Assembly (NCBI GenBank): GCA_040752395.1
Contig: JBFMHD010000037.1
Span: 5,404 to 16,593 of the forward strand
Direction of reading: 5' to 3'
Source of the DNA: Candidatus Hydrogenedentota bacterium
Lineage (GTDB): Bacteria > JBFMHD01
DNA length: 11,190 nucleotides
Shown here: in pieces, positions 1 through 11,190 of the stretch
How positions within the stretch are numbered: position 1 is the first letter of the stretch
How the letters are laid out: each line of letters opens with the position of its first letter
Notes under the pieces: model-generated
The model's database searches: none
What the model saw: the letters and a program-made list of their open reading frames with translations, nothing else
What the model was told of the DNA's origin: nothing
Translations under genes and position numbers: made by a program

Positions 1-78
1 ATTAAAAGATACGGCAAGGAAGTGTATATTTTCGCTTTCTTTACTTTTAACTTTTGACTTTTTACTTTTAACTTGTCA

Positions 79-145
79 TAGGAGTTAGAAGTTAGGAGTT
101 CGTAATAATAGCTCCGAGCTCCGAACTTTTTCGAAGGAGTCAACA
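79..145 (+). promoter_or_regulatory. Repeated leader element: (GGAGTTA)n ... (GCTCCGA)n hairpin, then a T-run and GAAGGAG Shine-Dalgarno. Copy A sits upstream of a 29-aa sORF
   Basis: AGTTCG(97-102) pairs with CGAACT(122-127), with G-U extensions. TTTTT(128-132) and AGGAG(135-139) follow. Near-identical to 1873-1941. Confidence 0.4.
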
Positions 146-235
146 TGAGCGCGTTTGCGCTCTACACTATTGGGTTCTTGGGTTCTTGCGTTATTGCGTT
201 CTACACAAAGGATGAAAAACTAAAGATGATATGAA
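146..235 (+). CDS. Candidate small ORF (29 aa, hydrophobic: MSAFALYTIGFLGSCVIAFYTKDEKLKMI)
   Basis: ATG lies 6 nt after GAAGGAG, the same leader as the downstream genes. The ORF overlaps a GAGCGC-gttt-GCGCTC hairpin and the GGGTTCTT octamer repeats, so it may be fortuitous. Confidence 0.15.
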
Positions 236-455
236 AAGAGTCACAAGTCGCAAGTCGTGAGTCAAAACAGGACTCAGGACTCAAGACTCAAGACTTTTCA
301 GCCGGCTCCGGGCCTCGGGCTCCAGCCGGCTGTAGTCCGTAGCCTGTAGCCTGTAGCCTGTACTGATACCTCTTACTTCTTCCGTTATCTTGCTTCTTGC
401 TTCTTGCTTCTACTTGATATTATTATAGTTACAATGTTTTTCGAAGGAGAGCCCC
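200..455 (+). repeat. Mosaic intergenic repeat cassette, copy 1. It is a chain of heptamer tandem tracts, then a GC-rich core, then the ATTATTAkAGTTACA-GTTTTTC-AGGAG tail
   Basis: Heptamer tracts: (GTCRYRA)x3, (AGGACTC/AAGACTC)x4, the GGCTCCGGGCCTCGGGCTCCAGCCGGCTG core, (TAGCCTG)x4 and (CTTGCTT)x3. Homologous to 6122-6305 and 10787-11027, with different tandem unit counts. Confidence 0.7.
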
Positions 456-462
456 CATAGAT

Positions 463-1863
463 ATGTATATTAATGAATCCCAGATGCAAAAGATTGTTGA
501 GAAAGTTATAGAGCGACTGAAAGATGCAGGTGAAATCATTATTGATGTTAATAGAGGTGATGGAATATTCGAGGATATAGAATCAGCGATTACAGCTGCT
601 AAAAATGCTCAAAAAACTCTGCTTGAATTATCACTTGAGAAAAGAATAGAGATAATCGAAAGTATGCGTAAATTTGCTCGAACACAGGTTCATCGATTCG
701 CAGTAATGGGCGTTGAAGAGACGGGTATGGGTAGAGTAGAAGATAAGATTGCTAAAAATTTGCTTGCTATAAATAAGACACCAGGTGTTGAAGACCTTAT
801 CCCATGGGTCTGTAGCGGCGACCACGGTCTTACCCTTGAAGAAAAAGCACCGTTTGGTGTTATTGGTTCCATTACTCCGTCCACAAATATTACTGAAACT
901 GTTATTGGCAATGCTATCTGTATGATAGCAGCAGGGAACAGCGTGGTGTTTAATCCTCACCCATCTGCTAAAAGAACAGCACAGGCTGCAATGGTGGTAC
1001 TGAATCAGGCTATAATAAAAGCAGCCGGACCAGCTAACCTTATAACCACAGTAAGAGAGCCAACCTTAAAATCAGCTGAGACTATTTTCACGCATCCTGA
1101 AGTTAAACTCGTACTTGTAACTGGCGGACCTGCTGTTGTTGAAGCAGCTATGAAATATCCTAAACGTTGCATCTGTGCAGGACCAGGAAACCCGCCTGTT
1201 GTTGTAGATGAAACAGCTGATATAAAAAAAGCAGCTAAAGATATAATTTTAGGTGCTACGCTGGATAATAATATTCTGTGCATCGCAGAAAAAGAGATAT
1301 TTGTTGTTGAGCCTGTATGTGATGTGCTTAACTCTGAATTAAAACGTGCCGGTGGATATCAATTGTCAGGGTATCAAATGGACCAATTAATGAAACATAT
1401 TGTTGTTAAAGAGGAAGTGGTGAACAGAGAACTTGTTGGCAGGAATGCTAATGTTATAGCTAAATATATAGGGTTAACTATACCTCAAGAAGTGAGACTA
1501 CTTTTTGCCGAGGTCTCAAAGGAGCATCCGCTTATTTATTTAGAACAGCTTATGCCCGTGATACCTGTTGTCAGAATTAAAAACGTAGAAGAAGGTATAG
1601 AACTATCTCTCAAAGCAGAGCACGGATACAAACACACAGCTATTATGCACTCTAAGAATATCGAGCGGTTATCAAGGATGGCACGTATTATGGATGTATC
1701 TATATTTGTTAAGAATGGGCCTTCCTGTGCAGGTCTTGGTTATGGTGGAGAAGGCTACACTACCTTTTCAATCGCAGGTACAACAGGTGAGGGCTTGACT
1801 ACACCAAAAACATTTACCCGACCCAGACGCTGTACACTGGTAGATTATTTTAGAATCGTATAA
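463..1863 (+). CDS. CoA-acylating aldehyde dehydrogenase, PduP/EutE-type BMC core enzyme, with an N-terminal encapsulation-peptide-like amphipathic helix
   Basis: 466 aa. ICAGPGNPP and NNILCIAEKEIFVVE motifs are typical of acylating ALDH. The N-terminus SQMQKIVEKVIERLKD is amphipathic and precedes the catalytic domain. Confidence 0.88.
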   Translation: MYINESQMQKIVEKVIERLKDAGEIIIDVNRGDGIFEDIESAITAAKNAQKTLLELSLEKRIEIIESMRKFARTQVHRFAVMGVEETGMGRVEDKIAKNLLAINKTPGVEDLIPWVCSGDHGLTLEEKAPFGVIGSITPSTNITETVIGNAICMIAAGNSVVFNPHPSAKRTAQAAMVVLNQAIIKAAGPANLITTVREPTLKSAETIFTHPEVKLVLVTGGPAVVEAAMKYPKRCICAGPGNPPVVVDETADIKKAAKDIILGATLDNNILCIAEKEIFVVEPVCDVLNSELKRAGGYQLSGYQMDQLMKHIVVKEEVVNRELVGRNANVIAKYIGLTIPQEVRLLFAEVSKEHPLIYLEQLMPVIPVVRIKNVEEGIELSLKAEHGYKHTAIMHSKNIERLSRMARIMDVSIFVKNGPSCAGLGYGGEGYTTFSIAGTTGEGLTTPKTFTRPRRCTLVDYFRIV

Positions 1864-1872
1864 GATGAAAAA

Positions 1873-1941
1873 GATAGGAGTTAGGAGTTCGTAATAATAG
1901 ATCCGAGCTCCGAACTCCGAACTCCGAAGTTTTTCGCAGGA
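1873..1941 (+). promoter_or_regulatory. Leader element copy B, a terminator-like hairpin immediately upstream of the SD of the pduS-like gene
   Basis: GGAGTTAGGAGTTCG(1877-1891) pairs with CGAACTCCGAACTCC(1911-1925), 15 bp with one mismatch. Then gaag, TTTTT(1930-1934) and GCAGGAG. Confidence 0.45.
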
Positions 1942-3282
1942 GTGATGGAATACTATATGGTAGAGAAAAAAAGAGATTTAATTGATATAATTAAAGAAGC
2001 AGGGGTTGTGGGCGCTGGCGGTGCTGGATTCCCTACACATATTAAATACAGCACAGAGGTTGAATATGTAATAGCAAATGGTGCCGAGTGCGAACCACTT
2101 CTACGTGTCGATCAACAATTAATGGATAAATATGCAAATGAGATAATACAGGCGTTACTTGCTGTAAAAGAAAGAGTAAAAGCAAAAGAAGCTATGGTGG
2201 GATTAAAATCTAAATATAAAGATGCTATTCGCTCCCTTAAAAAAGCTTCAAAAGATAGAGTAAGATTACATCTTCTTGAGAATGTGTATCCTGCCGGCGA
2301 TGAACATATTCTTCTTTATGATATGACAAAAAGAATCGTTCCAGAAGGTGGCATACCATTGCAGGTCGGCGCTGTTGTCTCTAATGTTGCCACACTTCTG
2401 TGGGTATATGAAGCAATGAATGGTAAACCTGTTACTGATAGGTGGCTGACAGTAACAGGTGAGGTTAATAAACCACAGACTATAAAGGTTCCGATTGGTA
2501 CCACAGTCAGAGATGTGCTGGAGTTTTGTGGCAGAGTAAAGATAAAAGATTTTAAAGTTATTGTTGGTGGACCAATAATGGGGGGTCTGGCTGAGAGTAT
2601 AGATCAAGGGATATTAAAGACTACAAGCGCCATTATTGTTTTACCAAAAGACCATTATGCTGTGTCTTACAAATATTTTGATTTAAATCTACATATCAAA
2701 ACGTCTAAAGCAGCGTGTTGTCAGTGTACATTCTGCACCAGTATTTGTCCGCGCAATTTAATAGGTCATTCAATAGAGCCTCATAAAATAATGAGGGGGA
2801 TATCATTTGGTGTTAATACAGCGGTCAAGGATGCTACGTTAGCTTTTTTATGTTGTGAATGCCAGTTGTGTTATTTCGCCTGTCCGATGAATTTAGCACC
2901 AGGAAGAATTAATGCTCTATTAAAACAGGAATTGACAAAAAAAGGCATAAAGAATCCGCATAATTTGAAACATAACAGGGCCCATATAATAAGAGAATAC
3001 AGGCTTCAACCTCTTAAAAGATTGATTGTTAAACTCGGGTTAACAGACTATGATGTTGATGCTCCTATATCTGATGAAACTTTTTTGCCAAAAAGGGTAA
3101 AAATATCATTGAAACAACATTTTGGCAAAAGTGCTGTTTGTGTGGTAAAAGAAGGGGCTAAAATTAAAAGAGGCGATGTTATAGGTGAAGCTGCTGAGGG
3201 TATATCAGCACGGGTTCATAGCTCTATAGATGGAATTGTAAAGAGTACACAGGGTGATGAGGTTATAATAAGTAGTGGATAA
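1942..3282 (+). CDS. PduS/RnfC-family flavoprotein with two [4Fe-4S] ferredoxin motifs
   Basis: AGVVGAGGAGFPTHIKY and NGAECEP motifs (RnfC/Nqo1-like NADH/FMN domain). Two CxxCxxCxxxCP motifs (CCQCTFCTSICP, CCECQLCYFACP). C-terminal barrel-sandwich-like segment. Start is ambiguous: GTG 1942, ATG 1945 or ATG 1957. Confidence 0.85.
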   Translation: MMEYYMVEKKRDLIDIIKEAGVVGAGGAGFPTHIKYSTEVEYVIANGAECEPLLRVDQQLMDKYANEIIQALLAVKERVKAKEAMVGLKSKYKDAIRSLKKASKDRVRLHLLENVYPAGDEHILLYDMTKRIVPEGGIPLQVGAVVSNVATLLWVYEAMNGKPVTDRWLTVTGEVNKPQTIKVPIGTTVRDVLEFCGRVKIKDFKVIVGGPIMGGLAESIDQGILKTTSAIIVLPKDHYAVSYKYFDLNLHIKTSKAACCQCTFCTSICPRNLIGHSIEPHKIMRGISFGVNTAVKDATLAFLCCECQLCYFACPMNLAPGRINALLKQELTKKGIKNPHNLKHNRAHIIREYRLQPLKRLIVKLGLTDYDVDAPISDETFLPKRVKISLKQHFGKSAVCVVKEGAKIKRGDVIGEAAEGISARVHSSIDGIVKSTQGDEVIISSG

Positions 3283-3298
3283 TCCATTGGTTATAGTT

Positions 3299-3326
3299 AG
3301 AAGCAAGAGGCAAGAAGCAAGATAAC
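3299..3326 (+). repeat. AGAAGCAAGAGGCAAGAAGCAAGATAAC tract, an inverted copy of 384-411
   Basis: Reverse complement of 384-411 with one mismatch. Related tracts at 6128-6150 and 10789-10800. Confidence 0.7.
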
Positions 3327-3361
3327 AGAAGAAGTGAGAAGTAAAGACCAAGGAGAGAACA

Positions 3362-3910
3362 ATGGAACAGGCTTTAGGGTTACTCGAGACAACGAGTGTC
3401 GCGTTAGGTGTTCAGGGTTGTGATGCGATGCTGAAATCAGGTAATGTTATATTGTTGGAGTCACGACCCACGTGTCCGGGTAAGCACTTTACATTAATTT
3501 CAGGTGAGGTCGGTGCTGTAAGAACAGCTATCGCAGCTGGTGAATTAGCTGCCTTCCCATCTGTGGTTCAGACAATGATTATCCCGAATGTTCACCCTTG
3601 TGTTATACCTGCGTTTACAGGTTCTAATATAGTAGAAGAGATAGAGGCTTTAGGTGTGATTGAGACCTATTCTTTAGCAGCCTGTGTTGAGATGGCTGAT
3701 GCAGCAGTAAAAGCTGCTGAAATTAAACTTATTGAAGTGCGATTAGGTTCAGGGCTTGCTGGTAAGTCATTTATATATTTAACAGGTACGGTGGGAGCTG
3801 TGAGGTCTGCTGTTTCTGCTTGTTTATCGCTTGAACATCATAAAGGATTGGTTCACTCAAGTATCATTATACCTTCACCGCATCCTGATTTAATCAAAGC
3901 GATTTTATAA
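3362..3910 (+). CDS. Tandem-BMC-domain shell protein (BMC-T), PduT-like, with the conserved Fe-S ligand Cys38
   Basis: Two BMC (PF00936-like) repeats (ALGLLET...GEVGAVRTAI and ALGVIETYSLAA...GTVGAVRSAV). The PTCPGKHF motif aligns with PduT TICPGKF. The Cys38 codon is tgt at 3473-3475. Confidence 0.88.
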   Translation: MEQALGLLETTSVALGVQGCDAMLKSGNVILLESRPTCPGKHFTLISGEVGAVRTAIAAGELAAFPSVVQTMIIPNVHPCVIPAFTGSNIVEEIEALGVIETYSLAACVEMADAAVKAAEIKLIEVRLGSGLAGKSFIYLTGTVGAVRSAVSACLSLEHHKGLVHSSIIIPSPHPDLIKAIL

Positions 3911-3932
3911 GAATGTCAGTCGACATTCTTTT
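3911..3932 (+). terminator. Intrinsic terminator-like hairpin GAATGTC-agtc-GACATTC followed by TTTT
   Basis: 7-bp perfect stem, 4-nt loop, T-run at 3929-3932, immediately after the pduT-like stop codon. Confidence 0.55.
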
Positions 3933-3971
3933 GGATACGGAACGATATCAGCTTTGCAGGATTAAGGAGTT

Positions 3972-4214
3972 ATGGATAAAGAATATATAGCTTCTGTGAT
4001 AACAGAAGTTATAAATGAAGAGATAAAGATAAAAGATAAACTTACATATCCAGCGAAAGAAGTCGTAAGAGTTGATGAGGTTATCGATGAAAGGATTATA
4101 AGAGATTTAATAAAAGGGAAAGCAGATGTTGTGAAAATAAAAAGTAGCGCAAAGATTACACCGCTTGCAATGGATAGAATAAAAGAGTCTAAAATTAAAG
4201 TTGTGAGAACATAA
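3972..4214 (+). CDS. Small (80 aa) BMC-locus protein of unknown function, with SAF/beta-grasp-like resemblance
   Basis: Strong RBS (AAGGAG, 5 nt before the ATG). The segment IIRDLIKGKADVVKI...AKITPLAMDRIKESKIKVV resembles the SAF-domain pattern xDIxKGxxVxKY...IGxAxxDIxxGExV (as in UxaA_N, FlgA, CpaB). This resemblance comes from memory only. Confidence 0.6.
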   Translation: MDKEYIASVITEVINEEIKIKDKLTYPAKEVVRVDEVIDERIIRDLIKGKADVVKIKSSAKITPLAMDRIKESKIKVVRT

Positions 4215-4215
4215 C

Positions 4216-4509
4216 GTGTTTTTTGCAAAAGTGATAGGTAATGTAGTTGCAACAAAAAAAAACGAAAATCTAAAAGGAAGAAGATTACTTCTTGTTCAGC
4301 CTGTAGACGAAAATATGAAACCCAGGGGGGACCCTGTTATTGCACTTGATTGGCTTGGCACAGATGAAGATGAATTAGTTTTTATAGTTCAGGGGAGAGA
4401 AGCTGTATATGAGGAATCTATGAAAGTAATGATACCAGCTGATGCTGGTATATTTGGTATTATTGATTCAGTGGATACAAAAGATAAGAACCTTTATAGA
4501 AAGCATTAG
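4216..4509 (+). CDS. BMC vertex protein (BMC-P), EutN/PduN/CcmL family, copy 1
   Basis: MFFAKVIGNVVATKK... is the classic EutN N-terminus. 97 aa. GTG start directly follows the upstream TAA stop. Confidence 0.85.
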   Translation: MFFAKVIGNVVATKKNENLKGRRLLLVQPVDENMKPRGDPVIALDWLGTDEDELVFIVQGREAVYEESMKVMIPADAGIFGIIDSVDTKDKNLYRKH

Positions 4510-4522
4510 GCTCGGGGGATGT

Positions 4523-4798
4523 ATGATCCTTTGTAAAGTTGTTGGTGTGGTTGTATCAACACAAAAAAATAAAAAGTTCGAGGGTGTTAAAATTTTTGTT
4601 GTACAGCCGATTAATCCCTCAGGCGAACCTATAGGAAATACTTTAATCTCTGCAGAATATGAGAATGATGCAGGCATCGGAGATACTGTATTAGTATTTA
4701 CTAAAGGGAATGCATCAAGATTAGTTGTAAGGGACCTTTCTTCACCAGTAGATTATGCTATCTGTGGTATTGTTGACAGAATAGAGATGAGTCATTAG
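4523..4798 (+). CDS. BMC vertex protein (BMC-P), EutN/PduN family, copy 2
   Basis: MILCKVVGVVVSTQKN... 91 aa. GGGGGA RBS 5 nt upstream. The 4442 start given in the ORF track is an upstream read-through extension. Confidence 0.85.
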   Translation: MILCKVVGVVVSTQKNKKFEGVKIFVVQPINPSGEPIGNTLISAEYENDAGIGDTVLVFTKGNASRLVVRDLSSPVDYAICGIVDRIEMSH

Positions 4799-4802
4799 TG
4801 GT

Positions 4803-5720
4803 TTACCATCTTTTGCGTTTCCAGAAAAGCATAAACCATACCATCGCAAGCAGAGCTATTAACATTATAATCCAGAAAGAAGAAAGACGCTCTTGAGAAA
4901 TAGGTAGCGGTACATTCATTGAGAAGATACTAACAACAAGTGTGGGAACCATAATTGAGATGGTAATAATATTCAAGGTTTTCATCAAAATATTAAGATT
5001 ATTATTTACGATTGAGGCACGGGCATCCATTAATCCTGCTAAAATATTTGAATATATTTCAGCTTGTTTATAACATTGAGAGTTTTCAATTGCTATATCA
5101 TCAAGTAGTTCAAGATTTTCCTGCGTGAGAACAATTTTGGTTGCATTATGTCTTATTTTTTCAATCAGCATAGAATTGGAATTAATAGAATTTAGATAAT
5201 AAACAAGACTCTTTTCAAGAGTGAATAAATTAAGGAGGTATTTATTTTCCATAGCATGAATTAATTTTTTTTCAAGTGAATCTGATACCATATTTATGAC
5301 CTTTAAATGTTCAAGATAATGATGGATTGAGCGATAGATAAGTCTGAGTAATAAATCCTGTAAAGACGTTATACGATTAAAGAGTTTTCCATCAAATAAT
5401 AAAGTGTTATCGGGTAAAATAACGATTAAATGTTCTTTAAAAAGAAAGAGTCCGACAGAATAGACCTTGAATAAAAATTTATCACTTGATGAATAGTTTT
5501 TAGGTTTTTTATAGATTATAGCGATATGCTCAGGCTCGAACTCCAATCGTGATAGCTCATCAGGGTCCAGAGCGGAATTAAGAGTGTGTTCATCGAGCTC
5601 GAATTCATCTAATAGATATTTTCTTTCAGCTTCATCAGGATTGACAAAGACTAAAATTTTAGCATCACCATCCGGGGCTTCTACGATTTTATCACCGAGT
5701 ATAAGATACTTTCTTAACAT
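4803..5720 (-). CDS. CorA-family divalent-cation transporter with an SMN motif in place of the canonical GMN
   Basis: 305 aa. C-terminal TM1-loop-TM2-KRKRW topology. The loop reads VVSIFSMNVPLP; the codon TCA=Ser was confirmed on the reverse strand at 4920-4946. Confidence 0.82.
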   Translation of the reverse strand: MLRKYLILGDKIVEAPDGDAKILVFVNPDEAERKYLLDEFELDEHTLNSALDPDELSRLEFEPEHIAIIYKKPKNYSSSDKFLFKVYSVGLFLFKEHLIVILPDNTLLFDGKLFNRITSLQDLLLRLIYRSIHHYLEHLKVINMVSDSLEKKLIHAMENKYLLNLFTLEKSLVYYLNSINSNSMLIEKIRHNATKIVLTQENLELLDDIAIENSQCYKQAEIYSNILAGLMDARASIVNNNLNILMKTLNIITISIMVPTLVVSIFSMNVPLPISQERLSSFWIIMLIALLAMVWFMLFWKRKRW

Positions 5721-5753
5721 TTTCTTATCTTCTCCACATTCTCTGAAGGTTAC

Positions 5754-6050
5754 TCACATTCTACGTTTAACAAGATGCGGTACCTCACGTTTTAGTATGC
5801 CGTTTAAAATACCATAAAGAGCTCTCTCGATATTTGGACGGTCAGTATTTGGAGGCAACGTAAGATCAAGTTTAATACGCGCTGAATCAATCAACATATT
5901 GTGAACCTTAATACCCATAATAATTATGTTTCTTTCTAACTGTTTTCTAATCCGATGTTTTAATCCCTCTGAGAGCCGTGAACGGCTCGCACGATCAGGC
6001 ATACTAAATGAAAGCTTAAGCTCAATGTTAACCCTTCGAATTACTTGCAT
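5754..6050 (-). CDS. Small hypothetical protein with a weak RbfA-like (ribosome-binding factor A) pattern
   Basis: 98 aa. Immediately upstream and co-oriented with the CorA gene. The patterns MPDRASRSRLSEGLKHRIRKQLE and ERALYGILNGILKREVPHL loosely match the RbfA N- and C-terminal motifs. An internal ATG at 6002 is an alternative start. Confidence 0.4.
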   Translation of the reverse strand: MQVIRRVNIELKLSFSMPDRASRSRLSEGLKHRIRKQLERNIIIMGIKVHNMLIDSARIKLDLTLPPNTDRPNIERALYGILNGILKREVPHLVKRRM

Positions 6051-6121
6051 AAATAATATCTTAACATATATGAAAATATTGTCTATAATTTATTTGACAT
6101 AATTCCCTCGCTTATAGGTTG

Positions 6122-6305
6122 TAAGAAGTAAGAAGCAAGAGGCAAGAAGTAGATAATATGTTGGCTCCGGGCTTGGGGTTCCAGACTCCAGCCGGCTGTA
6201 GTCCGTAGCCTGAAGCCTGTAGCCCGAAGAGATGTTTTTTTAATTTTTCATAGTAGGAGGTTATCAGTAAACAGAAAACCGAAAACCAAACACCGAACTT
6301 AAGAA
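6122..6305 (+). repeat. Mosaic intergenic repeat cassette, copy 2 (partial)
   Basis: It contains AGAAGCAAGAGGCAAGAAG, the GGCTCCGGGCTTGGGG...CAGCCGGCTGTAGTCCGTAGCC core, a T-run plus AGGAGG, (AAACCGA)n and ACACCGAACTTAAGAA (6290-6305). The last box matches 11012-11027. Confidence 0.65.
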
Positions 6306-6332
6306 TTTTACCGAAGACTGAAGGAATACTAG

Positions 6333-6367
6333 TTGACTTTGTAAAAAAATTAGTTATTATATAATCA
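6333..6367 (+). promoter_or_regulatory. Putative sigma70-like promoter for smpB (TTGACT ... TTATATAAT), which may give a leaderless mRNA
   Basis: TTGACT at 6333-6338. A TATATAAT-like -10 ends about 4 nt before the smpB ATG. No SD is present. Confidence 0.35.
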
Positions 6368-6811
6368 ATGAAAGTTATAACAGTTAATAAGAAAGCTGGG
6401 TTTAATTATCAAATATTTGAAAGGTTTGAAGCTGGTATAGTTCTTAAAGGTAGTGAGGTAAAATCAATAAGAGAAGGTAATATAAATTTAAAAGATGGTT
6501 ATTGTATAATGAAGGCAGATGAATTATATCTTATAAATGTGCATATATCAAGGTATAAGCCATCAGGAGTATTGAATCATGAACCTGAACGGGCACGAAA
6601 AATGCTCCTTCATAAAAGAGAATTAAAAAGATTGACAGGAAAGATCAATGAGAGAGGGTTAAGTATTATACCATTAAAGGTTTATATAAATCAAAAAGGC
6701 AGAATCAAAGTTGAGATAGGTTTAGCTAAGGGGAAAAGTAAGATTGATAAACGTGAGGATTTAAGAAAAAGAGCTATTGATAGAGAGATTGAGAGAGAGT
6801 TAAAGTATTGA
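6368..6811 (+). CDS. smpB: SsrA-binding protein SmpB
   Basis: 147 aa. KKAGFNYQIFERFEAGIVLKGSEVKSIREGNINLKDGY matches the SmpB signature. A basic C-terminal tail is present. The tmRNA gene follows on the same strand. Confidence 0.95.
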   Translation: MKVITVNKKAGFNYQIFERFEAGIVLKGSEVKSIREGNINLKDGYCIMKADELYLINVHISRYKPSGVLNHEPERARKMLLHKRELKRLTGKINERGLSIIPLKVYINQKGRIKVEIGLAKGKSKIDKREDLRKRAIDREIERELKY

Positions 6812-6850
6812 CGAATCTAAAGTATTATAGTAATATATAAAATTATAGGA

Positions 6851-6969
6851 GACAGAAGACAGAAGTTAAAAAGATACAAAGATTGAAAGATTCAAATGCA
6901 TTTTAACTTTTAATAGGAGGGTAAATAAATTTGCAATTTGCAATTTACAATGGAGCAAAGCGACAAGAA
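6851..6969 (+). repeat. Phase-coherent chain of heptamer tandem tracts upstream of the tmRNA
   Basis: (GACAGAA)x2, AAGATTG/AAAGATT, ATTTTAA/CTTTTAA, (AATTTGC)x3 and a GGAGCAAAGCGACA box (6952-6965). Confidence 0.6.
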
Positions 6970-6971
6970 AG

Positions 6972-7370
<399 letters not shown>

Positions 7371-7472
7371 GCTGACCTTATGGGAGGAAGAGTTCACAAG
7401 GATGTGAATAGAAGAAAATCACCGTGCCTGGAGCGAAGCGACAGCCGGAGTCGAACGAGAGTGAGCTAAAAG

Positions 7473-8177
7473 ATGAAGAATAAACCATCAGTTATAGGTG
7501 TTGTTCTGATTTTTTGCCTGCTACTTTTTAGTAACACTGATTGTATAAAAGCTCAGACTGCAAAAATATTGAGAGTTTGCATAGACCCGGGGCATGGTGG
7601 CGAAGATAGCGGCGTACCTGGTATGGCCGAACTCTTGGAAAAAGATGTTACTTTACAGATAGCAAAAAGAGTAAAGGAACAATTATCAGGTTATCCGAAT
7701 GTTGATATCGTGCTTACAAGAACGCTTGATATAACGTTAAACGATAAAGAAAGAATAAAAAGAATCTTTAACTCTCAACCCTCTCTGGTTATTTCATTAC
7801 ATACAGATGCTTCTTTAGATACAACTCTATCAGGAATAACAATATATAGTCTTGAAAACATAGTATCACCAATTTTAGGAAATGAACAAAAACAAGAAAT
7901 AATTAATAAAACATATAATGCTGCTGAAATAATTTACCAGATTTTTATTAAAAATATAATTTCTTTTGGCGTGAGCAAGCCGATAAAAGCGGATTTAGCG
8001 ACATATAGGAAGATAGGTCTCCCTGTAATTATGATTAATGCTGGATTTATAACTAATGCTGCTGATGAACTTATTATTTCAAAACCCGAGGGTTTAGAAG
8101 AGATAGCAAATAGTATCTCACAGGCAATTATTGGTTTAGAATCCCTCTTTATGGAATCTGTGCAATCAGAAAATTGA
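7473..8177 (+). CDS. N-acetylmuramoyl-L-alanine amidase (Amidase_3 family), secreted
   Basis: 234 aa. N-terminal signal peptide. The CIDPGHGGEDSG and SLHTDAS motifs are the Amidase_3 zinc-ligand signatures. Confidence 0.85.
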   Translation: MKNKPSVIGVVLIFCLLLFSNTDCIKAQTAKILRVCIDPGHGGEDSGVPGMAELLEKDVTLQIAKRVKEQLSGYPNVDIVLTRTLDITLNDKERIKRIFNSQPSLVISLHTDASLDTTLSGITIYSLENIVSPILGNEQKQEIINKTYNAAEIIYQIFIKNIISFGVSKPIKADLATYRKIGLPVIMINAGFITNAADELIISKPEGLEEIANSISQAIIGLESLFMESVQSEN

Positions 8178-8185
8178 TTTTTATT

Positions 8186-8420
8186 CAAGGGTTGAGGCAC
8201 TGCCAGAGAAGAATCTTATCTGCGGAATTTTTGCAATTCGTACAGAATTTTTGCTTTCGAGTCTGGCGTCTGAAGCATACGAATGGAGAATGGGTTGAGG
8301 CACTGCCTCATCCGTCTCTTTGCCAACAAAATTTCGCTTTTTGCATAGAGAATTCGCTTTTGCTGTATGGCATAGCAGATACCGAATGGTAGAATGGGTT
8401 GAGGCACTGCCTCATAATAC
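8186..8420. repeat. Three diverged ~104-bp tandem units, each carrying the palindrome TGAGGCA-c-TGCCTCA
   Basis: Palindromes at 8193-8207 (imperfect, right arm TGCCAGA), 8296-8310 and 8400-8414 (both perfect). Spacing is 103 and 104 bp. The units also share CGAATGG(T)AGAATGGG and GAATTTTTGC-like subrepeats. The period is not divisible by 3. Confidence 0.75.
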
Positions 8421-8469
8421 AATGAAAGCTGTACCTGAAAGTAAACGAGAAAAAAAAAGAGGTAAATCA

Positions 8470-9033
8470 ATGAGAAGAGTAGTATATATAATTATATTTT
8501 TAGCCGGGGTGATAGGTTTACTTTTAACAATAAAAACAAATTTCAATAAAATAAAAAGGGTTAATGAAATAAAAGGAGTTGCAGCATCTCAAACTCCGCT
8601 ACAAACCGAGAATGTGAGTATATATTTTGCTATTAAACAGCGAATGGAGTTACGCCAGGAAATAAGAATAGTTGAAAAAAGTAACACCATAGCTGGTAAA
8701 ATAAAAAGAATTATAGATGAAATGAAAAAGGGACCCCTGGATCCACAACTGAACAGAACCATACCTGCTGATATAGAAATTATGGATATATTCTTATCTT
8801 GTGACAGGGTATTTATTAATTTAGGGACCCACAATTTAGAAGAAATATTTATAAGCTTATCACAGGAGAGGATATTTATTAATTCTATTGTATTTTCTAT
8901 TCTGAAGAATATAGGGTATACCTATGATTCTGTAAGAATACTTATCAATGGGAAGGAGACAGAGGGAGTTCATATATATTTAGGAAGAGACTATAAAATA
9001 AGCGATTTTGAATCAGAAGAAGAAAGTCTATGA
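8470..9033 (+). CDS. GerMN-domain membrane-anchored protein
   Basis: 187 aa. N-terminal TM segment (VVYIIIFLAGVIGLLLTI). The body follows the GerMN pattern (VSIYFAIKQ...IRIVEK...IIDEMKKGP...IPADIEI...ILINGKE). AGAGGT RBS. The 8320 start in the ORF track is an extension through the repeat region. Confidence 0.65.
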   Translation: MRRVVYIIIFLAGVIGLLLTIKTNFNKIKRVNEIKGVAASQTPLQTENVSIYFAIKQRMELRQEIRIVEKSNTIAGKIKRIIDEMKKGPLDPQLNRTIPADIEIMDIFLSCDRVFINLGTHNLEEIFISLSQERIFINSIVFSILKNIGYTYDSVRILINGKETEGVHIYLGRDYKISDFESEEESL

Positions 9034-9602
9034 ATACTAAACCGGGGCAGATTATTTTAAGCAGTCTGTTTTTTATCTTTATTGGATATATAATTTACTG
9101 GGCGTTTTATTCAAAAATTGAAGAACCCAAAATCTTTAATAAAGCCATAGAAAAAAATGTTAAAAATTTAATTACAGGTGGTAAATATATTCGTGCATCA
9201 GAAGGTAAAATTCACTGGGAGATTACTGCAGATGAAACACAAGAAAAGGGCTCAGGCGAGATTAATTTAAAAAGAGTTTATTTAAAATTTTATGATATCG
9301 AGGCCGATACACCGATAATAGTAAATGCACTCGAGGCTATTTATAGCCCCAATAATAAAATCATTAAATTAAAAGATAATGTTGTTATAAAATACGGAGA
9401 TTTATTAATATTAACAGATGAACTTAATTATGAAGAAGAGAACGGATTTTTATTTAGTAAAAGTAATGTGGAGATAAGAGCCAATGAGAGCGTGATATAT
9501 GCCAGAGGATTGAAGGCTTATACAAGAGAAAAAAAATTGAAACTTTTTAATGTAAAAGGCAATTTAAGACCAGAAGATATAGAGGGGTTGAATAATTTAT
9601 GA
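9030..9602 (+). CDS. lptC: LPS export protein LptC
   Basis: 190 aa. N-terminal TM anchor. The C-terminal LKAYTREKKLKLFNVKGNLRPED matches the LptC end motif. ATGA overlap with the upstream gene. lptA and lptB follow. Confidence 0.78.
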   Translation: MNTKPGQIILSSLFFIFIGYIIYWAFYSKIEEPKIFNKAIEKNVKNLITGGKYIRASEGKIHWEITADETQEKGSGEINLKRVYLKFYDIEADTPIIVNALEAIYSPNNKIIKLKDNVVIKYGDLLILTDELNYEEENGFLFSKSNVEIRANESVIYARGLKAYTREKKLKLFNVKGNLRPEDIEGLNNL

Positions 9603-10081
9603 GAAAATTACTGCTGATATCAGTTGTATTTTTATTGTTAGGTAATACCGGGATAGCTTTAGAGGTAGAGAAGATACAGATCAATCATTCCGATGAGATG
9701 ATTTACGACGGGATTAAACATACGCTGGAATATACCGGCAGCGTGGATGTTACAAGCGACCAGATGGAATTAAAAGGTGAGAGAGTCATACTCTATTTTA
9801 ATGAGAAAGAAGATGAGATAATAAAAGCAGAGGCGTTCGGTAATGTATATATGAAAAAGGATGAATTCACTGCTGAAGCAGGTAAAGTAATTTATGAAAC
9901 CCAAAACGGGAAAATTACATTAGAAGAAAAACCAGTTGTTTATGGCGAGGGGAAAAAACTTAAGGCAGATTTTATAATCTACTTTGTTAAAGAGAAACGG
10001 ATTGATGCAAAGGGTAATGTATCGGGATTCTTTATACCACAGAAAAAAAAGAAGAAAGAAGATGAGTCAACTAAAAGCTGA
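9599..10081 (+). CDS. lptA: LPS transport periplasmic protein LptA (OstA-like)
   Basis: 160 aa. Signal peptide. OstA_N-like beta-jellyroll pattern. Lys-rich C-terminal tail. Position in the lptC-A-B operon. Confidence 0.75.
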   Translation: MRKLLLISVVFLLLGNTGIALEVEKIQINHSDEMIYDGIKHTLEYTGSVDVTSDQMELKGERVILYFNEKEDEIIKAEAFGNVYMKKDEFTAEAGKVIYETQNGKITLEEKPVVYGEGKKLKADFIIYFVKEKRIDAKGNVSGFFIPQKKKKKEDESTKS

Positions 10082-10784
10082 AAAAATATCAAAGAGGTTT
10101 GGGAATATAATCGCTGTTAATAATATAAGTCTTGAATTTAGTTGCAGCGAAGTTATTGGTCTGCTTGGACCAAACGGCGCAGGTAAAACAACAACGTTTT
10201 ATATTCTTATAGGATTGATAAAATCTGATACCGGCGATGTTTATATTGACGAACAGAAAATTACAGATTTTCCTATCCATAAAAGAGCACAATTAGGCAT
10301 CGCGTATCTTCCACAGGAACCATCAATATTCCGCAACCTTACTGTTAGAAATAATTTATTAGCGATACTTGAGTATCTCCCTCTTATAGAAGAGGAACGT
10401 GAAAAAAGAATTAATGAAATTTTACTCGATTTTAATCTCGGAAAGATTGTAGATTCTATGGGTTATAGTTTGAGCGGCGGTGAGAGAAGACGAGTTGAAA
10501 TAGCACGAACTTTGCTTCGTAAACCGAGATTCCTTTTGCTCGATGAACCTTTCTCCGGTATCGATCCCATTAAAGTTGATGAACTAAAAAAAGAGATAAT
10601 AAGACTTAAAGAAAAAAATATCGGCATAGTTATAACAGACCATAATGTTAGAGAATTACTTGAGATAACTGATAGAGCTTACATAATTAACAATGGTGAG
10701 GTATTGATAGAGGGAAATTCAAAAGATATAATCGAGAGTGAAGAGGCACGAAATATTTATCTGGGTGAGAATTTTAAATTGTGA
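10062..10784 (+). CDS. lptB: LPS export ABC transporter ATP-binding protein LptB
   Basis: 240 aa from the ATG at 10062. Walker A GPNGAGKTT. ABC signature LSGGERRRVEIAR. Walker B LLLDEPFSGID. Overlaps the lptA end by 20 nt. The 9984 start in the ORF track is an extension. Confidence 0.9.
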   Translation: MSQLKAEKISKRFGNIIAVNNISLEFSCSEVIGLLGPNGAGKTTTFYILIGLIKSDTGDVYIDEQKITDFPIHKRAQLGIAYLPQEPSIFRNLTVRNNLLAILEYLPLIEEEREKRINEILLDFNLGKIVDSMGYSLSGGERRRVEIARTLLRKPRFLLLDEPFSGIDPIKVDELKKEIIRLKEKNIGIVITDHNVRELLEITDRAYIINNGEVLIEGNSKDIIESEEARNIYLGENFKL

Positions 10785-10786
10785 CT

Positions 10787-11027
10787 TAGAAGCAAGAGGC
10801 ACAAAGGCACAGAGGCACAAAGTATGAAAAGAGTCGTGAGTCAAAACAGGACTCGAGACTCAAGACTCAAGACTTTTTAGCAGGCTCCGGGCTTCGGGCT
10901 CCAGCCGGCTGTAGTCCGTAGCCCGTAGCCTGTACCCCGAATTATTAGAGTTACAGCGTTTTTCAGAGGAGCGAAGCGACAATTAGGTTATCGGTGAACT
11001 GACCACCTAACACCGAACTTAAGAAAC
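10787..11027 (+). repeat. Mosaic intergenic repeat cassette, copy 3
   Basis: AGAAGCAAGAGGCAC, (GAGGCAC/AAGGCAC)x3, ATGAAAAGAGTC...(GACTCAA)n...GGCTCCGGGCTTCGGGCTCCAGCCGGCTGTAGTCCGTAGCC, ATTATTAGAGTTACAGCGTTTTTCAGAGGAG, GGAGCGAAGCGACA and ACACCGAACTTAAGAA. Collinear with copy 1 but with fewer tandem units. Confidence 0.7.
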
Positions 11028-11151
11028 TCTATCGATAAAATAGACATAAAATTGACGGTAATATATTAAAATATTGACAAATATAATTTTTTTTAAAAGA
11101 TTTTTAATGAAAAAATACTTTAAAATAAAGAAATTATATTTTAAAAAAAGA

Positions 11152-11186
11152 CTTGACAAAATGGTATAAAGCTTGCTATATATTTT
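11152..11186 (+). promoter_or_regulatory. Putative sigma70 promoter (TTGACA, ~18 nt spacer, TATATA) reading out of the window
   Basis: TTGACA at 11152-11157. TATATA about 18 nt downstream. Sits in an AT-rich tract. Confidence 0.35.
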
Positions 11187-11190
11187 TATG

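Follow-up and report, generated by a model that had tools for sequence, protein, structure and literature searches.

Heptamers are the most over-represented class of simple-sequence repeats (SSRs) in many bacterial genomes and have been attributed to polymerase slippage (Mrazek 2007, as cited in PMC4679880 and PMC4692102), and in Xanthomonas part of the GGGAATC arrays are arranged in inverted pairs that could fold into stem-loops (PMC4692102, PMC4679880). Repetitive extragenic palindromes (REPs) are for the most part transcribed, and an action as RNA elements has been proposed for them (PMC3733652), with mRNA stabilisation and termination among the roles proposed for them and for bacterial interspersed mosaic elements (BIMEs) (PMC3733652, PMC3116915), and the REPIN/RAYT model explains their spread as that of single-stranded DNA (ssDNA) hairpins via a trans-acting transposase (PMC3116915). 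Stem-loops lying between cistrons are also known to determine the subunit stoichiometry of complexes (PMC4423207). Here we analysed 11,190 nt (hereafter the window) of contig JBFMHD010000037.1, belonging to the metagenome-assembled genome (MAG) of a 'Candidatus Hydrogenedentota bacterium' (locus tags AB1765_, proteins MEW5692360-73), in which we recognise, with high confidence, a dispersed family of non-coding hairpin repeats built from heptamers. Each of the ten window proteins looked up is identical to a protein of this MAG.

The 23-mer CCAGCCGGCTGTAGTCCGTAGCC marks three cassettes, numbered 1 to 3, in which it lies at positions 322, 6188 and 10901, in every case on the + strand; 200 shuffles gave 0 matches. 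As claimed in the original prediction, a 10-bp palindrome, CAGCCGGCTG, sits within this core, and the core is GC-rich compared with its genome (64-68% vs 36% for the window); (GACTCAA)n and (CTGTAGC)n heptamer tracts were detected in the window as well. Over 106 nt, copies 1 and 3 share 93% identity. Further copies were expected outside the window, and two were indeed retrieved. Among the matches listed by an exact-pattern scan of genome contigs with the core was JBFMDD010000128.1 (L001), from a second MAG (AB1567), which starts inside a cassette nearly identical to copy 3 and encodes downstream the protein AB1567_04380. A protein search with the core translations retrieved AB1765_03905 (P0131), a 79-aa 'hypothetical protein' encoded on another contig (16.4 kb) of the MAG of the window. 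This protein can be aligned with the frame translations of copy 1 and L001, one TAG being TGG in its case, and thus represents the read-through of a fifth cassette; AB1765_03905 is very likely an annotation artefact. The lineage DNA examined amounts to ~13 kb, namely the 11.2-kb window plus 2.2 kb.

At least nine types of module (M1-M9) could be told apart, each consisting of two to five tandem heptanucleotides or, occasionally, octanucleotides: M1 (TTTGCGCTCTACAC...GATGAAAAACTAAAGATGATATG), M2 (a GAGTC/GACTC hairpin), M3 (the GC core), M4 (a purine-rich AGAAGCA array), M5 (ATTATTAKAGTTACA..GTTTTTCRRAGGAG), M6 (GGAGCGAAGCGACA), M7 (ACACCGAACTTAAGAA), M8 (a TAGGAGT/CTCCGAA hairpin) and M9 (TTTTAACTTNTNATAGGAG). 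The resulting architectures are M1-M2-M3-M4inv-M5 in copy 1, M4-M3-M9'-M7 in copy 2, M4-M2-M3-M5-M6-M7 in copy 3, M1-M3-M5 in L001 and M1-M3-M4inv-M5 in P0131. The three copies had been described as collinear; the core is indeed found three times, but the copies do not have all blocks in common in a single order, and which modules are shared differs from one pair of copies to the next. In particular, ATGAAAAGAGTC, the GACTCAA tract and ATTATTAKAGTTACA..GTTTTTC..AGGAG are found in copies 1 and 3 only; ACACCGAACTTAAGAA, among the three window cassettes, in copies 2 and 3 only; and GGAGCGAAGCGACA in copy 3 only, its other occurrences (6952, 7430) flanking the transfer-messenger RNA (tmRNA) gene. 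The additional module of copy 1 is the reverse complement of segment 3298-3343, where M4 stands alone, as M8 does twice (79-139 and 1872-1942). Overall, modules recur at no fewer than five loci in two MAGs, in varying combinations, with M4 the only one also seen inverted.

Copies differ from one another by whole units of 7, 14 or 21 nt, as slipped-strand mispairing predicts and in agreement with the variable number of 7-nt units originally reported. The 5' arm of M2 carries two extra heptamers in copy 1 (14 nt, instead of the single extra CAAGTCG first described), the arms of M3 contain three or four units, and M4inv is 21 nt longer in P0131, corresponding to three heptamers and 7 extra residues. 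A 39-nt indel of M1, placed between direct repeats CTACAC and entailing the loss of the octamer array, is an exception to this rule. Whole modules are also gained or lost: M2 is found between ...GATGATATG and GGCTCC in copy 1 and is not there in L001 and P0131, and M4inv, which separates M3 from M5 in copy 1 and P0131, is not there in copy 3 and L001. The family was proposed to be non-coding, and this holds: the TAG of the GTAGCC units occurs in all + frames, the heptamer indels shift the frame and no Pfam match was found.

The cassettes are the most visible part of a wider 7-nt pattern that extends over most of the intergenic DNA of the window. Tandem Repeats Finder returned 22 arrays of period 7-8, nearly all in spacers, in which at least 12 unrelated heptamers are in use. 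Nucleotide identity at lag 7/14/21 is 0.40/0.35/0.32 in intergenic DNA (2.0 kb) vs 0.27/0.28/0.29 in coding DNA (9.2 kb), where no peak rises over a background of ~0.26-0.30 and the maximum lag-7 identity across 67 coding windows is 0.36. Six of the ten intergenic stretches of at least 60 nt show a lag-7 identity of 0.43-0.54, vs ~0.26-0.33 in shuffles, the signal being significant (z 2.9-10.7) in 1-462, 1864-1956, 3283-3361, 6051-6367, 6812-6971 and 10785-11030, as well as in L001 (1-147), and missing from 3911-3971, 7334-7472, 8178-8470 and 11031-11190.

Besides this scale beyond three cassettes, the original prediction overlooked that the heptamer tracts pair up as opposite arms of hairpins. 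The 5'-arm and 3'-arm heptamers of M2, M3 and M8 are near-complements of each other, giving helices of 6 bp with one mismatch per 7 nt; in M3 of copy 3 the helices measure 7, 6, 6 and 3 bp, with single C-U, U-U and C-U mismatches each 7 nt. The predicted hairpins have z scores from -2.8 to -6.4, with the exception of M3 copy 1 (z -1.6), the M3 of L001 (free energy, dG, -43.8; z -6.4) and M2 copy 1 (dG -26.7, z -5.7) being examples of the predicted folds. M8 copy a is predicted to form a hairpin of 8+7 bp (dG -16.5, z -3.3), followed by U5 and by a Shine-Dalgarno-like GGAG, and in M8 copy b (dG -22.3, z -4.0) the GGAG downstream is the predicted pairing partner of a surplus CUCC unit. Several pairing registers are possible, shifted by 7 or 14 nt, and in segment 43-131 the middle array is predicted to be able to pair with either neighbour. 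The + (sense) strand is predicted to be the more stable in seven of eight comparisons because of G-U pairs; in whole-spacer folds, z is -3.8 (+) and -3.3 (-) for 1-462, and -3.5 (+) and -2.3 (-) for 10785-11030. The arms of M3 are balanced or nearly so in all copies (units per arm 4/4, 4/4, 3/3 and 3/4), and 94% of the cells in the alignment of its four copies are paired, with four one-sided wobble changes. As for terminator features, M8 is followed by U5 and M2 copy 1 ends with U4, with neither called by a consensus scan, and M3 has no adjacent U-tract.

Modules were found in the long leader of the aldehyde dehydrogenase gene, in two intra-operon spacers, in a divergent promoter region, in the smpB-tmRNA spacer and at the 3' end of lptCAB. 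A placement upstream of operon starts, as first suggested, is confirmed for copy 1 and for the L001 copy; it does not apply to copy 3, located 2 nt past the lptB stop and upstream of the next promoter-like AT-rich region, nor to the modules inside the microcompartment operon (1872-1942, 3298-3343). Of the 39 intergenic module matches, only two overlapping ones to inverted M4 (386-411) are not on the gene-sense strand, and the orientation is sense relative to the adjacent genes in 8/8 repeat-bearing spacers, L001 included. All 2-kb intervals have a positive GC skew (0.11-0.27), including the stretch with two minus-strand genes, which suggests that the + strand is the leading strand. On the + strand, intergenic DNA exceeds coding DNA 4.5-fold in the density of CTCC (anti-Shine-Dalgarno-like) and 4.2-fold in that of GGAG, with 10/12 intergenic CTCC lying inside heptamer arrays. 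The idea of a mobile promoter found no support, as a consensus scan called 40 promoter sites vs 38.7 expected and no promoter-like site is common to the cassettes. That of a mobile ribosome-binding site is partly plausible: the terminal block GTTTTTCRRAGGAG precedes an ATG by 2-14 nt in four of its five occurrences, but its distance from the annotated starts 463 and 1957 is 13-14 nt, a poor spacing, and it is therefore a weak ribosome-binding site at best.

The closest relative available, a Logan contig (L002, SRR22388273) whose aldehyde dehydrogenase shares 82% aa identity, has orthologous spacers of 70 and 20 nt free of repeats, vs >460 and 93 nt in the window, indicating that the modules are lineage-specific additions. 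L002 is also much GC-richer than the window, and its compact spacers suggest that the lineage of the window became AT-rich and repeat-rich. No match was obtained for the core 23-mer and an M8 33-mer in JGI metagenomes, for the repeats in IMG/VR scans, or for cassette 3 by blastn against plasmids and phages, and a homology search with the L001 protein returned only itself. Rfam 15, at E values up to 1, gave nothing over any cassette; its matches are limited to the tmRNA gene region, including a sub-threshold 'permuted tmRNA' match at 7275-7396 (27.9 bits vs a gathering score of 47).

The genes and repeat features of the window are collected in Table 1.

Table 1. Genes and repeat features of the window, with coordinates in nt.
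Feature	Position	Strand	Remarks
Aldehyde dehydrogenase	463-1863		Microcompartment locus
RnfC-like 4Fe-4S protein	1957-3282		Microcompartment locus
Bacterial microcompartment (BMC) shell protein	3362-3910		Microcompartment locus
Hypothetical gene	3972-4214		Microcompartment locus
Two EutN genes	4216-4509, 4523-4798		Microcompartment locus
CorA	4803-5720	-	
Hypothetical gene	5754-6050	-	
smpB	6368-6811		
tmRNA	6972-7333		Rfam 15 match, E 4e-71
Amidase	7473-8177		
Germane-domain protein	8470-9033		
lptC, lptA, lptB	9030-10784		
(ACTTTTA)x4.6 array	43-84	+	Tandem Repeats Finder, fold; overlaps M9 (TTTTAACTTGTCATAGGAG, 66-84); RNA pairable with next (UAGGAGU)n array via G-U
M8 copy a: (TAGGAGT)x3, loop TCGTAATAATAG, (GCTCCGA)x2, then CTTTTTCGAAGGAG	79-139	+	Repeats, fold
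M1 (TTTGCGCTCTACAC ... GATGAAAAACTAAAGATGATATG) with internal (TTGCGTTC)x4 octamer array	152-233	+	Overlaps unannotated ORF 145-233
M2 copy 1: four GAGTC-type heptamers, loop AAAACAG, four GACTCAA-type heptamers	231-298	+	Hairpin with A-tract foot and U-tract foot
M3 copy 1: (GGCTCCG)x3, centre AGCCGGCT, (GTAGCCT)x4.4	299-362	+	Hairpin, dG -30.8; 68% GC
M4 inverted: pyrimidine-rich (TTGCTTC)n array	367-412	-	91% reverse complement of 3298-3343
M5 copy 1: ATTATTATAGTTACAATGTTTTTCGAAGGAG	419-449	+	GGAG 13 nt 5' of aldehyde dehydrogenase ATG (463)
M8 copy b: (TAGGAGT)x2, loop, (CTCCGAA)x4, then GTTTTTCGCAGGAG	1872-1942	+	Between aldehyde dehydrogenase and RnfC-like gene
M4 forward: (AGAAGCA)n	3298-3343	+	Between RnfC-like and BMC shell genes
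M4 forward, 5' end of copy 2	6121-6152	+	
M3 copy 2: 4+4 heptamers	6160-6229	+	Hairpin, dG -34.3, z -2.8
M9-like block (6238-6256), (AAACCGA)x4 array, M7 ACACCGAACTTAAGAA (6290-6305)	6238-6305	+	
smpB-tmRNA spacer: (AGACAGA)n, (AAAGATTC)n, M9, (AATTTGC)x3.4, M6-like GGAGCAAAGCGACA	6850-6965	+	Lag-7 z 2.9
M6 GGAGCGAAGCGACA	7430-7443	+	Upstream of amidase gene
M4 variant running into (AGGCACAA)x3 octamer array	10786-10822	+	5' end of copy 3, 2 nt past lptB stop
M2 copy 3: 5' arm of 2 heptamers vs 3' arm of 4	10824-10878	+	dG -19.1, z -3.4
M3 copy 3: helices of 7, 6, 6 and 3 bp	10880-10942	+	dG -38.4, z -5.8
Tail of copy 3: M5 (10941-10971), M6 (10968-10981), M7 (10997-11025)	10941-11025	+	

Some further observations concern single loci. 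The 14-nt M6 block GGAGCGAAGCGACA (6952-6965, 7430-7443 and 10968-10981) lies 7 nt 5' of the tmRNA start, 97 nt 3' of the tmRNA end and in cassette 3. The 46-nt segments 367-412 and 3298-3343, which are 91% reverse-complementary, bracket the aldehyde dehydrogenase and RnfC-like genes, probably belonging to one transcript, and a long-range pairing between them is conceivable. The best + promoter-like site, TTAACA-17-TATAAT (6061-6089, 11/12 matches), is found just 5' of copy 2, and a T8 run (6236-6243) 11 nt past its M3 hairpin; judging from these sequence signals, copy 2 alone could give rise to a separate transcript of ~145 nt. A second promoter-like site, TTGACT-16-TATTAT (6333-6370, overlapping TATATAAT), ends a few bases before the smpB ATG (6368), which has no Shine-Dalgarno sequence; the smpB mRNA may be leaderless. 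Finally, a unit of ~103 nt, starting with GGGTTGAGGCACTGCCTCAT, a small GAGGC/GCCTC hairpin, is repeated in ~2.7 tandem copies at 8178-8470, between the amidase and Germane-domain genes; having neither 7-nt periodicity nor an Rfam match, it does not belong with the heptamer modules but is another kind of repeat.

Taken as a whole, the statement that these repeats form a lineage-specific system of modules, shaped by slippage and acting in cis as transcribed stem-loops, appears to us somewhat better founded than its negation. According to this model, the number of units would change by replication slippage, the accepted mechanism for SSRs, the periodic mismatch would result incidentally from the amplification, in each arm, of a single seed unit of imperfect complementarity, and the modules would spread by recombination or by means of a trans-acting factor. 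Lying on the sense strand in leaders, intercistronic spacers and 3' untranslated regions (UTRs), they would, by virtue of this position, be transcribed, and the transcribed stem-loops would modulate termination, 3'-to-5' decay or ribosome access. The action of the modules in cis as RNA stem-loops, considered by itself, is at best as likely as not.

Several points weigh against this interpretation. Transcription of the modules is assumed. The orientation bias is confounded, the sense strand being probably also the leading strand, and a strand-specific insertion would give an equal bias; since GC skew is positive window-wide, this bias cannot tell transcription from replication strand. Cassette copy 2 as a whole (6100-6330) folds no better than shuffles on either strand (z -0.5), and some copies of M2 and M8 have arms of unequal length (2 vs 4 units), which speaks against a strong selective pressure to keep the hairpins full-length. 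Finally, covariation analysis, which had been proposed as a check, found the M3 copies well paired but with 0 double-sided changes in 25 pairs among the four copies, and hence no compensatory change, the copies being too similar and too few; the M3 fold is thus conserved, not proven by covariation, and covariation support for this hairpin was rejected.

The main rival, in our opinion rather unlikely, is that the modules are selfish or neutral DNA without host function, either miniature non-autonomous elements that a trans-acting transposase (RAYT/IS200-IS605-like or other) copies as ssDNA hairpins or slippage filler spread by gene conversion. Near-identical modules at unrelated loci in two MAGs, the clean presence or absence of modules such as M2 and inverted M4 (in copy 1 and not in L001), the spacers of the relative free of modules and the unbalanced arms of M2 and M8 would all be consistent with it, as would the contig break inside the L001 cassette, typical of high-copy repeats, and a strand bias coinciding with positive GC skew, as for ssDNA insertion on one replication strand. 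On the contrary, the cassettes show neither terminal inverted repeats nor target-site duplications, the window contains no transposase, the REPIN architecture is lacking (no unpaired GTAG/CGTC tag and no inverted doublets), and nine families of modules, mostly not hairpins, would require one very permissive mechanism. Selfish spread is nevertheless compatible with a secondary RNA function.

Known mobile or protein-recognised elements were also considered and rejected. The cassettes are not miniature inverted-repeat transposable elements (MITEs), as no terminal inverted repeats occur at their ends and their inverted repeats are internal hairpin arms only, and an integron attC site was set aside in view of the housekeeping gene context. 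A cluster of methylation or restriction sites was discarded in view of GANTC being dense in M2 but of normal density in coding DNA (3.4 per kb), and HutP-like periodic UAG-N4 sites would fit only two of the ~12 heptamers.

It is quite unlikely that the modules serve as tandem binding sites of a regulator recognising specific RNA or DNA sequences (S1, Csp or CsrA-like), with the number of heptamers setting occupancy. The A(N)GGA core is the recognition element of CsrA, and the UAGGAGU units contain it. Tandem heptamers also lie directly 5' of start codons, the enrichment of GGAG and CTCC in intergenic DNA reported above would fit as well, and the TAACTGA repeats of Beggiatoaceae offer a precedent in the literature (PMC4679880). 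But at least 12 unrelated heptamers are beyond any single site-specific protein, many arrays are paired within hairpins and no candidate regulator was identified.

The surplus CUCC unit predicted to pair with GGAG (1864-1956), together with the alternative pairing in 43-131, led us to consider also a post-transcriptional code tunable by slippage, a speculative idea to which we assign a very low probability. In leaders and in spacers between cistrons, the arrays would fold into alternative hairpins that exclude one another, with the Shine-Dalgarno-like UAGGAGU, the anti-Shine-Dalgarno-like CUCCGAA/GGCUCCG and the G-U-compatible ACUUUUA as pairing partners, and the gain or loss of single 7-nt units would alter the balance of terminator-like, anti-terminator-like and Shine-Dalgarno-sequestering folds. 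If true, it would provide heritable, reversible, gene-by-gene tuning of expression genome-wide.

It is highly improbable that each cassette is a discrete small-RNA (sRNA) gene, as the original prediction considered, or a small-protein gene. The strong promoter-like site 5' of copy 2 and the T8 run after its M3 hairpin would suit an sRNA, but copies 1 and 3 have neither promoter nor T-run, and no consistent promoter/terminator pair is found; module content varies from copy to copy, and a known sRNA or riboswitch was rejected for want of any Rfam match. As for small proteins, PGAP (the NCBI annotation pipeline) called the 79-aa ORF over one copy, and the open reading frame (ORF) 145-233 has a well-spaced Shine-Dalgarno sequence; however, ORF frame, length and stop differ between copies, the + frames are closed by the TAG of GTAGCC and small-protein genes were rejected accordingly. 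In detail, ORF 145-233 is an unannotated frame of 29 codons (MSAFALYTIGFLGSCVIAFYTKDEKLKMI), preceded by a well-spaced GAAGGAG and overlapping M1; in L001 and P0131, 39 nt of this region are deleted in frame and the stop is missing at that point, neither the ORF nor P0131 has a Pfam match, and the ORF is probably not a gene. An assembly artefact (a collapsed or chimeric repeat) can be practically dismissed, for even though MAG contigs are short and one ends inside a cassette, five copies with different unique flanks and module content were found in two independently assembled MAGs and lie between intact conserved genes.

The origin and function of heptamer repeats are unexplained, including those of the short tandemly repeated repetitive (STRR) sequences of heterocystous cyanobacteria described in 1990, and the locus reported here offers a dense and structured case. 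With full genomes and transcriptomes, it becomes testable whether such repeats reflect a property of the polymerase or selection for multi-register hairpins, whether unit number tunes expression and how modules of less than 100 nt spread without transposon ends. On the practical side, these repeats fragment MAG assemblies and yield spurious 'hypothetical proteins' such as AB1765_03905.

Among known systems, the STRR sequences and long heptameric SSRs resemble the modules in consisting of intergenic arrays of 2-5 heptanucleotide units, with several unrelated units per genome, many of them just 5' of start codons or between cistrons and with a variable number of units; they are likewise lineage-specific, attributed to slippage and of no established function (PMC4692102, PMC4679880). 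Head-to-tail 7-nt units are represented here by the 22 arrays of period 7-8, which are non-coding and dispersed over six of ten window spacers plus L001. None of CCCCAGT, TTGGTCA, CAACAGT, TAACTGA, GGGAATC and GGGGAYT occurs in tandem in the window, Hydrogenedentota are not among the repeat-rich lineages named in PMC4679880 and PMC4692102, and a literature search on intergenic repeats of Hydrogenedentes gave nothing relevant. Unlike in those systems, the arrays are here systematically paired as the two arms of hairpins and joined to non-repetitive blocks in recurring multi-module cassettes.

BIMEs combine palindromic units with other short conserved motifs in a mosaic of variable composition, and five copies with five architectures correspond to such a mosaic, the resemblance being limited to architecture, without homology to the enterobacterial elements. 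REPs and BIMEs share with the modules an extragenic location, also in transcribed spacers including intra-operon ones, imperfect palindromes and a GC content higher than the surroundings (PMC3733652, PMC3116915). The REP-like character originally suggested is therefore a fair functional analogy, but strict REP/REPIN membership was rejected: in the four M3 copies no unpaired GTAG/CGTC is found next to the stem on either strand, GTAG occurring 3-5 times inside the paired 3' arm, and no inverted doublets exist, the copies of M3, M2 and M8 being single and in one orientation. The module hairpins measure 48-66 nt vs 20-40 bp for REPs, and their arms are tandem heptamers.

A stable stem-loop between the cistrons of a multi-subunit operon is also found in the cip-cel operon of Clostridium cellulolyticum, where it belongs to selective RNA processing and stabilisation (PMC4423207), and M8 between the aldehyde dehydrogenase and RnfC-like genes (dG -22 kcal/mol) resembles it as a functional analogy only, the cip-cel stem-loops not being a dispersed repeat family. 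The small dispersed repeats (SDRs) of Nostoc punctiforme, as reportedly described by Elhai et al. in 2008, are hairpin-forming mobile units of 21-27 nt inserted in other repeats, including heptamer arrays. M2 recalls them as a clean hairpin insertion of ~65 nt between M1 and M3; SDRs, however, are not known to be built of heptamers themselves or to share sequence similarity with the modules. What differs here, in a phylum for which no report of such repeats was found, is the systematic period-7 pairing of hairpin arms, the many distinct units and the shuffled reuse of modules.

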